From an uncultured Eubacteriales bacterium (GTDB taxonomy: Bacteria; Bacillota; Sulfobacillia; Fermentithermobacillales; Fermentithermobacillaceae): 32,426 nucleotides of DNA. Location: the NCBI GenBank assembly GCA_964414105.1, contig CAYPVF010000005.1, positions 1-32,426 of the forward strand, written 5' to 3'. This document shows, in pieces, positions 3,153 to 32,426 of this stretch; within the stretch, counting starts at the first letter, position 1; each line of letters starts with the position of its first letter. A model generated the notes under the pieces. The model did no database searches and was not told where the DNA came from. It saw nothing but the letters and a program-made list of their open reading frames with translations. Both the position numbers and the translations under genes were made by a program.

Positions 3153-3961
3153 CGCATCATCACCAATACTTCTTCCAAATGCTGAAGGTCGGCGGCAGGC
3201 CTGATAACGGCTTCTTTGACCAGACCAGGCCTCGGGATATACACAGATTGAACTTCTCCTACGAAAATCCCTGGGGGAAATTTGCTGCCTACACCGGAAG
3301 TCAGTACTTTGTCGCCTGGTTCAATGTCGGCGTCTTTGTTGAACAAACGCAACACCAAGTTTTCGGGGTCGCCGGTGCCCAACAAAACACCAAAATCCCG
3401 GGAGCGCTCCAGCATAACCCCTACACCGCTTTCAGGGTCGGTTATAAGAACCACAGTGGACATTTCCTTGTCAACAGACAATGTGCGACCCACAAGTCCG
3501 CTTCCCGATACCACCGGGGAATCTACCTCGACCCCGTCTTCCTCCCCCAAGGAAATCGCAACAGTGGAGAACCATTTTACAGGGTTTCGTCCGACAATTT
3601 CCGCCACCAGGTATTGTTCTTGAGAGCTTTCCTTGAACCCAAGAAGCTCCCTGTAAGCCGCGTTTTTTCGCCGGAGCTCCTCTACCAAGGCGCGCAAATG
3701 TTCCACCGTCTCGGTTTCTTGGGATAACCTTTTGTTCTCTTTTTCCAAGTCGGCTTTATCAGCAAGAAGAGCGGTCCAGGCATTCCATTTGGCCCCAATT
3801 TTGTCTGCGGTTTGAAATACAGGGCTGGATATTTTCAAGAACACGCTTTGCCATATACTGGGCCCGCTGCGGGTATTGCCCGCCAAACTCAAAAGGAAAA
3901 TGGAGGCGGCTACAAGTACCACAAGTGTGATCACTTTTTTATAAGGTAATTGCCGCCTCAC
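3149..3961 (-). CDS. mreC: Rod shape-determining protein MreC
   Basis: 270 aa: N-terminal TM, coiled-coil segment (EKENKRLSQETETVEHLRALVEELRRKN), then a beta-rich C-domain (GLVGRTLSV...VLTSG..FPPGI.VG.V). Lies immediately downstream of mreB. Confidence 0.85.
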   Translation of the reverse strand: MRRQLPYKKVITLVVLVAASIFLLSLAGNTRSGPSIWQSVFLKISSPVFQTADKIGAKWNAWTALLADKADLEKENKRLSQETETVEHLRALVEELRRKNAAYRELLGFKESSQEQYLVAEIVGRNPVKWFSTVAISLGEEDGVEVDSPVVSGSGLVGRTLSVDKEMSTVVLITDPESGVGVMLERSRDFGVLLGTGDPENLVLRLFNKDADIEPGDKVLTSGVGSKFPPGIFVGEVQSVYIPRPGLVKEAVIRPAADLQHLEEVLVMMR

Positions 3962-15355: not shown

Positions 15356-16531
15356 TTGAGTACACAAGTTATCGCACACGCGCGCCGCATTTATTTGGAT
15401 CATTCTGCTACAACGCCTGTTTCACCAGAAGTGCTTGAGGCGATGATGCCTTTTTTCAGCGAGAACTTCGGAAACGCTTCCAGCATCCACAAATGGGGAC
15501 AAAGGGCAAAAGCGGCTATTGAAGAAGCGCGCGGAAAAACAGCAGATCTCATTGGCGCTGCGCCGCAAGAAATCTTTTTCACATCCAGCGGCACGGAATC
15601 AGACAATTTAGCCATTAGGGGTGCGGCGGCAAAGAACCGGGGCCGCAAAAATCACATAATTACCTCGGCAATAGAGCACCACGCGGTTTTACACAGCTGT
15701 GAGGATCTTGAAAAGAACGGGTTCAGGGTAACTTACCTTCCTGTTGATAAATATGGAATGGTAGACCCCGGCGATGTCAAAAAATCCATCAGCGATGATA
15801 CCTTTTTGATTACGATTATGCACGGTCAAAACGAGGTTGGCACTATCCAGCCCATAGAAGAAATAGCGTCAATAGCCCGTTCCAAAGGGGTTCTTTTTCA
15901 CACCGATGCGGTACAAAGCGCGGGACTGTTACAGATAGACGTCAAGGATATGAACATTGATCTTCTGACATTATCGGGGCACAAAATGTACGGGCCCAAA
16001 GGTGTGGCCGCTCTTTATGTCAGAAGAGGAGTGCGGCTTGAGCCGCAGATTACCGGCGGCGCACACGAGCGCGGCCTGCGGGCGGGCACTGAAAACGTGA
16101 CGGGAATAGTGGGTTTGGGGGAGGCTTGTTACCAAGCCAAACAGAACCTGGCCCAAGAAAGCCCCCGGTTACAGGAATTGCGAGATTATTTGATATCCGG
16201 AATTCTTAGCAGCATCCCCAACACCGTGCTAAATGGGCACCCAGTGAAAAGACTTCCCCATAACGTTAACATCAGCGTGAAAAGTGTTGAAGGAGAAGCC
16301 ATGCTTTTGAACTTGGATTTGTTGGGAATCGGCGCGTCGTCTGGGTCTGCCTGCACATCCGGGTCCCTGGAACCTTCACATGTACTTTTGGCCATGGGGG
16401 TTCCCCACGAAATGGCCCACGGGTCTTTAAGGATGACGTTAGGGCAAAGCACTGCGAAGGAAGATTTAGACTACGTCATCTCCGTTTTACCCCCAATAGT
16501 AAAAAGATTAAGAGATATGTCAGCGCTGTAA
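15356..16531 (+). CDS. iscS: Cysteine desulfurase (NifS/IscS class)
   Basis: 391 aa with the PLP-lysine motif SGHKMYGPKG and the catalytic Cys loop SSGSACTSG. Confidence 0.9.
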   Translation: MSTQVIAHARRIYLDHSATTPVSPEVLEAMMPFFSENFGNASSIHKWGQRAKAAIEEARGKTADLIGAAPQEIFFTSSGTESDNLAIRGAAAKNRGRKNHIITSAIEHHAVLHSCEDLEKNGFRVTYLPVDKYGMVDPGDVKKSISDDTFLITIMHGQNEVGTIQPIEEIASIARSKGVLFHTDAVQSAGLLQIDVKDMNIDLLTLSGHKMYGPKGVAALYVRRGVRLEPQITGGAHERGLRAGTENVTGIVGLGEACYQAKQNLAQESPRLQELRDYLISGILSSIPNTVLNGHPVKRLPHNVNISVKSVEGEAMLLNLDLLGIGASSGSACTSGSLEPSHVLLAMGVPHEMAHGSLRMTLGQSTAKEDLDYVISVLPPIVKRLRDMSAL

Positions 16532-30169: not shown

Positions 30170-30843
30170 CTATCCGTCCACCTAGACTTAAGACTCCTGA
30201 AATCCTCGAGAACAAGCTTCTTTTTATTTGCCTCGTCGCGAAGCACGGCGGCGGGGTGGAAAGTAACAAGGTGGCTAATCCCGTCTTTTTCAAACCACTT
30301 TCCCCTGTCTCTTGTAACGCGTATGGAAGAATCGATCATGGTTTGGCTGGCCAAAGCCCCCAAAAGCACAATAATCTTGGGCTGGATAATGCGAATTTGG
30401 GCCTGAAGATGCGGCAGACAAGCGGCCACTTCAGGAGGCGATGGAAGCCTGTTTCCCGGGGGGCGGCATTTTACAATATTGGTTATAAAAACGTCGTCAC
30501 GGCTAAGCCCCACCAAATGGAAAATAGAATCCAGAAGCTGTCCCGCTCGGCCCACGAAAGGTTTTCCTGTGTTATCCTCGTTCTGCCCGGGACCTTCGCC
30601 CACCATAAGGATGCGGGCGGCGGGGTTCCCGTCGCCAAAAACAACACCTTTTGCCCCTTTGCGGAGTTCGCAATCGCTACATTGTATTACTTGCGCGCGC
30701 AGGCCATCAAGATCGTTTATTCCTTGCCAAGAATCACTTCTGGAAGGTTTCCACGGTTTTTCCTGGGCGTCAAACAACGAGCCCTGCCGCGCTGTAAAAT
30801 CGGCTTCATATGGTTTCGTCAATTTTCTGTTTCTCACCGGCAA
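30166..30843 (-). CDS. udg: Family 4 uracil-DNA glycosylase (Fe-S type)
   Basis: Motifs CSDCELRK, GEGPGQNEDNTGKPFVGRAGQLL and HPAAVLR. There is no ATG near the N-terminus; the start is TTG at 30843 or 30821. Either start overlaps the upstream gene. Confidence 0.85.
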   Translation of the reverse strand: MPVRNRKLTKPYEADFTARQGSLFDAQEKPWKPSRSDSWQGINDLDGLRAQVIQCSDCELRKGAKGVVFGDGNPAARILMVGEGPGQNEDNTGKPFVGRAGQLLDSIFHLVGLSRDDVFITNIVKCRPPGNRLPSPPEVAACLPHLQAQIRIIQPKIIVLLGALASQTMIDSSIRVTRDRGKWFEKDGISHLVTFHPAAVLRDEANKKKLVLEDFRSLKSRWTDS

Positions 30844-31747
30844 TTCTTTGAAGCATCTCCACTTTGCTTTTTATGATCTCTGGATATTGTCTTATGAGCG
30901 AAACATTATCCTCCAAATGCTTTTTGTAGTTCTCAGCTACCGCGTCGTCTAACTTCAGCAATTTCCCGTATATACTTTCACCTAAAGCCGCTGCTTCTTC
31001 GCAATCGGGTTGGCAAGGAAAGAAATCCTTGGTGAAGTAGGAGAACGGATTGTGCACTTCAGGCTCCTCCATGTGGATGAGCTGATTGGCTGCCCTTGAC
31101 TCCGGCGACAAGATTCCGCTTTGGCGGTCGAATACATAACGATCGATACAACAGGCAGGGAACCCCAGGATAGACCCGAGCCTCTTCAAATAAGCCGGGC
31201 TGGCCTCCTCGGGAAACGCCCGCACATGAGCAGCGCCAAGATCGGGCGTGCGAAGCCTTTGGTACCTAATGTCTTTTCGAATTTCTTGAAGCTCATCGAG
31301 CTCTTGGGCAACTGTATCATCGGTGAACAAGTAAATTTCTCTTATGGTTGGGCGGGACTCCAGCTCTTTCTTTTTGAGGCCAAGCTTGTCTATCCACTTC
31401 ATGAAAACCGTGTAAGAATGCGCTTTGGTAACCACATTGTCATAAATGTCCCGCAGCACATCCATTCTGTGCCTAATCTCGGCCATTTGGGACTTCCGCC
31501 AATACTTGCCCATTTTGCCTTTCAAAAACTTGGACATGGATTCGCCCGGTAACCTTCTACCCTGGGTTTTCTGGCGAAATTGTTCATCTATAGTACCGCC
31601 TAAAACTGAAGCGTCAGGCAATTCCGCCGGGGTAATTATTTGAGATGCGCGTCTAACGCCTAAAGCCACCGGCAAATAGTCGTCAAATTTAGCGCGTTCA
31701 GGAATAACTCTTTCATTCATAAACTCAATCAGAAGCGTTTTATCCAT
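30806..31747 (-). CDS. Uncharacterised protein with a CC...CxxxC cysteine motif
   Basis: 313-aa ORF with normal-looking composition. Contains GFPACCIDRY and FFPCQPDCEEA, about 45 aa apart. From memory the GFPxCC-type motif resembles the DUF483 family, but this is unverified. Its 3' end overlaps udg. Confidence 0.6.
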   Translation of the reverse strand: MDKTLLIEFMNERVIPERAKFDDYLPVALGVRRASQIITPAELPDASVLGGTIDEQFRQKTQGRRLPGESMSKFLKGKMGKYWRKSQMAEIRHRMDVLRDIYDNVVTKAHSYTVFMKWIDKLGLKKKELESRPTIREIYLFTDDTVAQELDELQEIRKDIRYQRLRTPDLGAAHVRAFPEEASPAYLKRLGSILGFPACCIDRYVFDRQSGILSPESRAANQLIHMEEPEVHNPFSYFTKDFFPCQPDCEEAAALGESIYGKLLKLDDAVAENYKKHLEDNVSLIRQYPEIIKSKVEMLQRIAGEKQKIDETI

Positions 31748-31918
31748 AACCTACCTGAGCAAACCCTCCTTCAGAACCAACATCCTTTTTACCATTGTTC
31801 TCTATTACAGGTTTCTATCCCTTCCCAATTGGGTCGGGACCACAGTGCTTTGAAACTAGGATACCCCATTTTGTGGCAGTAGCCGTTGAACAAACCACGG
31901 ATTAGAATCCTGCCATGG

Positions 31919-31980
31919 CCGGCGCGGCGTTGATTCTGCTACCGAAATTCTTAGAATTTCTGTAGCCATCGCGACGCCGG
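31919..31980. repeat. Imperfect ~62-nt inverted repeat (long hairpin) in the ORF-free spacer
   Basis: Inner stem: GCTAC-C-GAAATTC (31938-31950), loop TTA, GAATTTC-T-GTAGC (31954-31966). Outer stem: CCGGCG (31919-31924) pairs with CGCCGG (31975-31980), with partial pairing between. No T-tract on either side. Confidence 0.55.
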
Positions 31981-32087
31981 TTCGGAACTAGTTTATACCC
32001 TTTAACCCGATCTAGGGAGGTATTTGCCTCATAAACCACCTCTGCGATTAAGCAATCGTCTAGCTGCTGCACTGCTTTGGTGGCATA

Positions 32088-32426
32088 TTCACCGCCCCGC
32101 CCAACTCACGATGAAAATATCAGCGCAGCAGCTGTCCCGCGCGGGTATCTTCACCGCCCCGCCCGACTCACGATGATAATATCGGCGCTGCAACGGTCGC
32201 ACGCCGGTTTCTTCACCGCTTCGCCCAACTCACGATGAAAATATCAGCGCAGCAACTGTCGCACGCGGGTATCTTCACCGCTTCGCCCCACTCACGATGA
32301 AAATATCAGCATCGCAGCTGTCGCGCGCCGGTATCTTCACCGCTTCGCCCAACTCACGATGAAAATATCAGCATCGCAGCTGTCGCGCGCGGGTATCTTC
32401 ACCGTCCCGCCCAACTCACGATGAAA
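32088..32426. repeat. Tandem direct repeat array with exact 62-bp period, 5 full units plus a 29-nt partial unit cut by the window edge
   Basis: The unit-initial TTCACCG occurs at 32088, 32150, 32212, 32274, 32336 and 32398. Consensus is roughly TTCACCGCYYCGCCCAACTCACGATGAAAATATCAGCRYMGCAGCTGTCGCGCGCGGGTATC. No indels between units. Confidence 0.95.

Follow-up and report, generated by a model that had tools for sequence, protein, structure and literature searches.

The 62-bp tandem array at the right-hand end of the window, by which we mean the whole stretch of 32,426 nucleotides analysed here, is a genuine, lineage-specific, non-coding intergenic minisatellite located at a synteny breakpoint. 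It is of a known kind, a bacterial VNTR or minisatellite, with a new unit sequence, and nothing observed here links it to a known system. The array evolves in concert: slippage, unequal recombination or gene conversion homogenises the units of each array. Between species, both the unit length (62 vs 84 bp) and most of the unit sequence have turned over, and only a dyad core of about 22 nt has been retained. We suggest, with a probability of about 0.4, that this core represents reiterated binding sites for a dimeric protein, with a spacing near whole helical turns.

The array and its repeat unit

Tandem Repeats Finder describes positions 32088-32426 as a 62-bp tandem array of 5.5 copies with 88% matches, 0% indels and a score of 489, and the 32.4-kb window contains no other long-period array; the copy number is a lower bound because the contig end cuts the array. 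The unit table resolves five full units and 29 nt of a sixth. Unit 1 (TTCACCGCCCCGCCCAACTCACGATGAAAATATCAGCGCAGCAGCTGTCCCGCGCGGGTATC) occupies positions 32088-32149, unit 2 32150-32211, unit 3 32212-32273, unit 4 32274-32335, unit 5 32336-32397, and the partial unit 6, cut by the contig end, 32398-32426. The exact 62-bp register without indels, the start of each of the six units, and the truncation at the window edge, all of which were given in a preliminary description of this DNA, are reproduced. The same description put the differences between units at 2 to 10 of 62 positions; the five full units differ pairwise at 2 to 13 positions (79-97% identity), unit 2 being the outlier with 9-13 differences from the others, and the 2 sites reported between units 4 and 5 are correct. 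Fifteen columns vary in all, five of them in the 36-nt conserved part of the unit and 10 in the 26-nt GC-rich part, and the uneven spread of substitutions that had been noticed is thus found again, at a marginal level (Fisher p = 0.036). The array contains five occurrences of a 21-nt core pattern, vs 0.01 expected by chance, and the rest of the window contains none. We also considered whether a degenerate unit precedes unit 1 on its left, but the support was weak and the idea was rejected. The left flank also holds a 13-nt inverted copy of the GCAGCAGC segment of the unit (32062-32074 vs 32121-32133, 92% complementary), which may be a remnant of the seeding of the array or a chance occurrence in GC-rich sequence.

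Two further assemblies of the locus, both from different sequencing runs, were found through an exact look-up of the flanking 313-aa protein. The first, L001 (run SRR8925811), is an independent assembly that matches the flank and unit 1 exactly up to nt 40 of the unit, where its contig ends, and the contig of the second, L002 (SRR8925721), stops in the flank about 170 nt short of the array. Contigs that end at or before the array are what a genuine repeat would yield if short-read assemblers fail to cross it. An origin as an assembly artefact is improbable, since the junction of the array with the flank is reproduced in L001.

The core pattern was sought in 185,579 species genomes, with one non-tandem chance match (L003), and in JGI metagenomes and viral contigs, with no match. 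Plasmid and phage records hold no similarity to the array, and a protein collection searched with its six-frame translation, to catch spurious ORFs on array-bearing contigs, gave no match. A loose tandem-core scan of viral contigs matched only 75-nt coding repeats in AT-rich giant-virus contigs, which are irrelevant to the array. The IMG/VR giant-virus contigs L092 and L093 (32% GC) carry very extensive 75-nt (25-aa) coding repeat arrays and are unrelated chance matches.

The array cannot encode a repeat protein, because 62 is not a multiple of 3, stops are present in each unit (one triplet on the plus strand and three on the minus strand of the consensus), and no ORF that touches the array exceeds 53 aa; its earlier description as non-coding is upheld. 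ARAGORN found no tRNA or tmRNA in the array, and the Rfam 15 covariance models gave only sub-threshold chance matches to eukaryotic or archaeal snoRNA and miRNA models. The array is also not CRISPR-like, as had been stated, because the whole 62-bp unit is repeated. All 62 columns recur and only 15 of them vary, in place of a layout of repeats and unrelated spacers, and no cas-like gene is found among the 18 largest ORFs of the window, which are housekeeping or of unknown nature and represent the visible side of the array.

The best example of the core common to this array and that of the sister genome L004 lies at 32296-32318 on the plus strand, where the local alignment reaches a score of 27, a value attained by 1 of 1000 column permutations in the whole-array comparison. 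In the aligned block, TGAAAATATCAGC-ATCGCAGC of the window corresponds to TGAAATTTTCAGCAATCGCAGC of L004, with 19 of 22 positions identical in the same orientation. The dyad core has the sequence GMTGAAAWTWTCAGC, and an imperfect 7-1-7 dyad, GATGAAA-A-TATCAGC, is present at 32110, 32172, 32234, 32296, and 32358. Five of seven positions match per half-site in the window, and the corresponding sequence of L004 is a perfect palindrome of 17-19 nt in both copies. Outside the array, the dyad core is no commoner within the window than expected by chance, and the idea of a global-regulator motif is unsupported. Likenesses to attC, REP, cre, Rex, Fur, CodY and parS, judged by eye, were rejected, as length and register fit none of them.

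An imperfect palindrome of about 48 nt also occurs once per unit, for example at 32109-32156 (minus strand, from local folding). Its arms, CGATGAAAATA and TATCTTCACCG, flank the GC-rich variable segment and are 9/11 complementary as DNA. As a minus-strand RNA they are 11/11 complementary with two G-U pairs, and the predicted structure consists of this 11-bp stem and an apical stem. Over the five units, 91.6% of cells are paired, vs 34-64% when the pairing is slid, with 19 pairs per unit; the compensatory changes number zero over the same five units, and unit 2 breaks two outer pairs. The minus-strand fold has a z-score of -5.65 against dinucleotide shuffles and of -2.5 (3/200) against repeat-preserving permutations. 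The plus strand folds no better than controls (z -0.9), in MFE folding that is blind to toxin-bound pseudoknots. In L004, the better-folding strand has the opposite orientation to that of the window (z -3.5 vs -1.3), a difference that argues for DNA-level dyads rather than one RNA. A single conserved RNA structure is unsupported, covariation being absent and the favoured strand differing between the two genomes, and the comparison of the sequences points to dyad symmetry at the level of DNA as the recurring feature of both arrays.

Genomic context and the sister genome

The host is an uncultured Bacillota bacterium and the window is ordinary chromosomal DNA. Its genes are those of the chromosomal core, including MinC, PBP2, MreC, MreB, RadC, ApbE and Rnf subunits, together with M42 peptidases, TsaD, PyrF, RimI, TsaB, TsaE, and UDG. 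A 391-aa protein encoded at 15356-16531 (plus strand) gives very strong PADLOC matches to DndA and SspA (E about 1e-160) and is most likely a housekeeping cysteine desulfurase of the IscS/NifS type. The gene nearest the array, at 30806-31747 on the minus strand, points away from it and encodes a Cys-rich protein of 313 aa with the motifs FPACCIDRY and FFPCQPDCEE, a weak DUF483 match below the Pfam cut-off, and no match among the PADLOC models. This protein is conserved in many uncultured Bacillota, and at all inspected syntenic loci its gene lies directly upstream of, and usually overlaps, a UDG-family gene that is followed by TsaE, TsaB, and RimI. It is not an array-specific partner, because it is also conserved in relatives without any array.

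The array is separated from the start codon of the 313-aa gene by a spacer of 340 nt (31748-32087), and alignments show that only the 80 nt or so nearest the gene are conserved in all relatives, the rest being found in the lineage of the window and L004 only. Within this lineage-specific part, a block of about 40 nt at 31846-31889 (core AAACTAGGATACCCCAYTTTGTGG; about 1150-1200 in L004) is about 85-90% conserved between the two genomes despite saturated four-fold sites, and is missing from the other relatives. It has no Rfam match; a regulatory site and a small RNA element are both possible. A single sigma-70-like site, TTGATT-16-TAGAAT, faces the array and is located at 31930-31957 on the plus strand; the count of such sites is no higher than in shuffled sequence, and this one is not conserved in L004. 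A 55-nt imperfect palindrome at 31925-31979, with 27-nt arms that are 74% complementary and separated by 1 nt, overlaps this site about 110 nt to the left of the array and is likewise not conserved in L004. The array probably lies between two divergent promoters, the right-hand gene of this arrangement being borrowed from L004.

L004 (GCA_964643285.1) is the only close relative, with a flanking protein that is 93% identical. It carries an 84-bp array of 2.5 copies, which begins 351 nt from the start of the orthologous gene, vs 340 nt in the window. Beyond this array come 320 nt of non-coding DNA and then a membrane-protein gene of opposite orientation. L004 and the window have a derived breakpoint in common, and beyond the conserved 80 nt their DNA is lineage-specific. 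The synteny breakpoint is located about 80 nt upstream of the DUF483-like gene (31748-31830 in the window) and is seen against L005-L009 and L086-L091. Relatives at 70-80% identity retain the ancestral order, in which a MutL-like gene and a 373-aa gene are followed, after a gap of 125-175 nt, by the DUF483-like gene; only about 80 nt of the upstream sequence can be aligned across all relatives. No array is present in these 70-80% relatives (L005-L009 and L086-L091, eleven syntenic loci that represent four distinct relatives).

Long-period non-coding arrays are rare in comparable DNA, where 369 kb of other loci gave roughly one clear case, and given this rarity two independent arrays at the same place are very unlikely; the arrays of the window and L004 are therefore taken as positional homologues. 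Their units are unalignable outside the 22-nt core, and the homology of the arrays rests on position and one short core (p about 0.001). An earlier comparison of the window with L004, which used only two units, was not significant. The MAFFT alignment places a 24-column gap beside the common block, and this gap broadly accounts for the 22-bp difference in unit length.

The orthologous flanking genes of the window and L004 are 84% identical as DNA, and 55% of the four-fold degenerate sites in the flanking gene differ, which corresponds to a saturated Jukes-Cantor distance of about 1.0. The mean divergence between units of the same array is 12% in the window and 18-19% in L004. The saturation of the four-fold sites together with a within-array divergence of 12-19% argues for concerted evolution, or for re-amplification after the split. 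Against the saturated neutral sites, the retained core and the block at 31846-31889 stand out as probably constrained.

On the far side of the L004 array, no toxin-sized ORF is present, and the PADLOC models matched neither that region nor the neighbours in the window. The gene beyond the L004 array has no close homologue that can be assigned to the window organism (best 64%). A coding role for the L004 repeat (84 = 28 codons; 118-aa ORF) was rejected, as the differences are spread evenly over codon positions in a hand count and PADLOC gave no match. The arrays of L004 and L013 prompted the idea that an array accompanies the membrane-protein/GerE-regulator operon; this idea was also rejected, since L013 is the only one of 74 family loci (369 kb) with an upstream non-coding long-period array, and the dyad core is not enriched upstream of this operon family. 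The array of L013, a JGI metagenome contig, is unrelated: it lies at 3711-3849, consists of 3.2 copies of a 43-bp non-coding unit with 91% matches, and carries a GATCAC-N10-GTGATC dyad in each unit. A strong TTGAAT-17-TATAAT promoter, which belongs to a membrane-protein/GerE-regulator operon, follows about 75 nt downstream of it. Tandem repeats of 96 bp in 2-3 copies are found in L070 (2217-2504) and L071 (2313-2504), about 500 nt upstream of membrane-protein homologues (36% identical), and may be coding, the period being a multiple of 3.

Candidate functions of the array

The array persists across saturated synonymous divergence and its dyad core is conserved, and for these reasons we lean slightly towards a function at the level of DNA. 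In the mechanism that we propose, the core would be a candidate reiterated binding site for a dimeric DNA-binding protein, and the candidate sites would stand at roughly whole helical turns (62 is about 6 x 10.4, and 84 = 8 x 10.5), a rough phasing that was recognised only post hoc. The rest of the unit, rich in GC, would be a freely evolving spacer, and the array would act as DNA on one or both of the neighbouring promoters. The preliminary description had offered an iteron or centromere array as one of three candidates. The housekeeping context on the visible side and the lack of a plasmid or phage match speak against this origin, but the dyad core keeps a reiterated protein-binding site plausible. 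Much of the evidence for binding sites could also come from a repeat-prone site that is purely neutral.

Such a neutral minisatellite (VNTR) would be repeat-prone junk DNA from a rearrangement breakpoint that expands, contracts and is homogenised by slippage and unequal recombination. We regard it as quite possible and nearly as likely as the binding-site reading. The restriction of the array to the lineage of the window and L004, missing as it is from all of the 70-80% relatives, is consistent with neutrality, as are the change of period and of most of the sequence between the two genomes and the identity of 79-97% between units in the absence of covariation. The array matches no RNA family, plasmid, phage, or public contig, and neither flanking gene family is associated with arrays. 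Bacterial genomes show a deletion bias, under which an unconstrained array is expected to collapse. The array has, however, been kept at the same position although the four-fold sites are saturated, and 19 of 22 core positions survive where neutral DNA would be expected to be unalignable. A recently amplified, neutral minisatellite was another of the three candidates offered earlier, and for evolutionary behaviour the minisatellite is the best of them, given its lineage specificity, its differing period and the likeness of units within the array; the qualification "recent and neutral" is too simple, as position and the 22-nt core have been kept.

It is unlikely that the array is a functional multi-copy element of an undescribed kind, in either of two versions taken together. 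It could be an operator or architectural array built on the dyad core, in which selection would keep the copies multiple while the rest of the unit turns over, or an antitoxin-like or guide-like RNA array of an unrecognised system, with a protein partner that would lie just past the contig end.

The last of the earlier candidates, an RNA repeat array transcribed from the plus strand and cut to unit-length RNAs, such as a type III antitoxin with its toxin gene past the contig end, is in our view unlikely. The part of this proposal that stands is the size of the array: published toxIN arrays have units of 31-62 nt in 1.9-5.6 copies, and Firmicutes and Fusobacteria predominate in the type III families (PMC3401426, Table 2 for the range), so that a unit of 62 nt in at least 5.5 copies fits a type III antitoxin. 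One sigma-70-like site faces the array from 130 nt upstream, but promoter-like sites are present at no more than the chance level and this one is not conserved. ToxN-type nucleases cut A-rich sites, and an A-rich AAAAU/AAAU stretch is found in the conserved core. The proposal is weakened by the neighbours of the L004 homologue, which is followed by non-coding DNA (320 nt) and a membrane-protein gene with no toxin-sized ORF and no PADLOC match, and by structure, as the plus-strand fold (z -0.9) does not surpass the controls. Rfam gave no match, and the units are variable with no compensatory changes among them.

A stem-loop of about 48 nt in each unit, acting either in a minus-strand RNA as a weak terminator or a sponge for an RNA-binding protein, or as a DNA cruciform, is improbable. 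The excess of the minus strand over repeat-preserving permutations (z -2.5, 3/200) and the pairing of 91.6% of cells at 19 pairs per unit speak for it, and both G-U pairs of the outer stem become A-C mismatches on the other strand. Against it stand the zero compensatory changes, the two outer pairs broken in unit 2, and the preference of L004 for the opposite strand and a different hairpin architecture. Two units are terminator-like on the minus strand, but this count is no higher than in shuffles, and no known minus-strand transcript enters the array.

We give very little weight to a MIRU-like element, in which a 21-codon ORF in each unit would relay ribosomes through ATGA overlaps to a downstream gene. 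In the published description (PMC12548453), MIRUs link an ORF of their own to the neighbouring gene through a -4 overlap. Every unit of the array does contain an ATG...TGA frame over 21 codons with an ATGA overlap, as 62 = 3 x 21 - 1, but 13.5% of shuffled 62-nt units do so too, and the arrangement is thus a chance expectation. No Shine-Dalgarno sequence is found ahead of the unit ATG, the substitutions between units are mostly non-synonymous in the peptides of the mini-ORF, and the window has no further copies of the unit at dispersed sites. The array also lies outside an operon, because the neighbouring gene in view is divergent. An assembly artefact, in which reads of a shorter repeat or of several loci were mis-joined, is highly improbable even though the contig end falls inside the array and short-read contigs from other samples reach no further than unit 1, as the units carry distinct, ordered variants, the junction of the flank with unit 1 is independently reproduced, and the sister genome was assembled straight through an array at the same place.

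If the core is a real binding site, the array would be a cis-regulatory element kept in multiple copies by concerted evolution, with the unit length and the spacer free to change and the core held, and would provide a small, clean natural experiment in the evolution of bacterial regulatory arrays. If a nuclease or toxin gene lies past the contig end, the array would widen the type III-like RNA-protein systems to include a unit of 62 nt from an uncultured lineage of Bacillota. If neither is the case, the array is an ordinary VNTR, which matters in practice mainly because short-read assemblies break there.

Comparison with known systems

CRISPR arrays resemble the present array in their regular periodicity of about 60 bp and in the breaking of assemblies at the locus. 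The array differs from them in that its whole 62-bp unit is repeated and in that no cas-like neighbours are found among those examined; even its "variable" half is about 60-85% identical between units, which argues against unique CRISPR spacers. With iteron and centromere arrays, of which the F sopC centromere is an example (12 copies of 43 bp), it has in common direct repeats that each carry a dyad-symmetric motif, with a period near whole helical turns. Unlike these arrays, it is located in a chromosomal housekeeping context with no rep or par genes on the visible side, and it has no similarity to plasmids, phages, or viral contigs.

Type III toxIN loci also consist of a tandem non-coding array, and the array falls inside their range, at 62 nt and at least 5.5 copies in a Firmicutes host. 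In contrast to these loci, the homologous array of L004 has no toxin gene, a structure signal on the plus strand is absent, and the units differ by up to 21%. The terminator-plus-toxin module of toxIN is not in view on a contig that ends inside the array.

The mycobacterial MIRU-VNTR loci share with the array head-to-tail units of tens of bp (40-100 bp) in an intergenic position, changes of copy number or unit between relatives, homogenisation within the array, and an ATGA-overlapped mini-ORF in the unit. The array differs from MIRU-VNTR loci in its host phylum and in the level of its mini-ORF, which is that of chance (13.5% of shuffles). Its unit has no dispersed copies in the 32-kb window or the related loci, and it lies outside an operon on the visible side, with no coupling of an ORF to a co-oriented flanking gene. 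A further difference is that an array has been kept at one locus, with its dyad core conserved, while synonymous sites became saturated. As in a minisatellite that evolves in concert, the units are closer to each other within an array than between arrays, and the periods of the two arrays are 62 and 84 bp.
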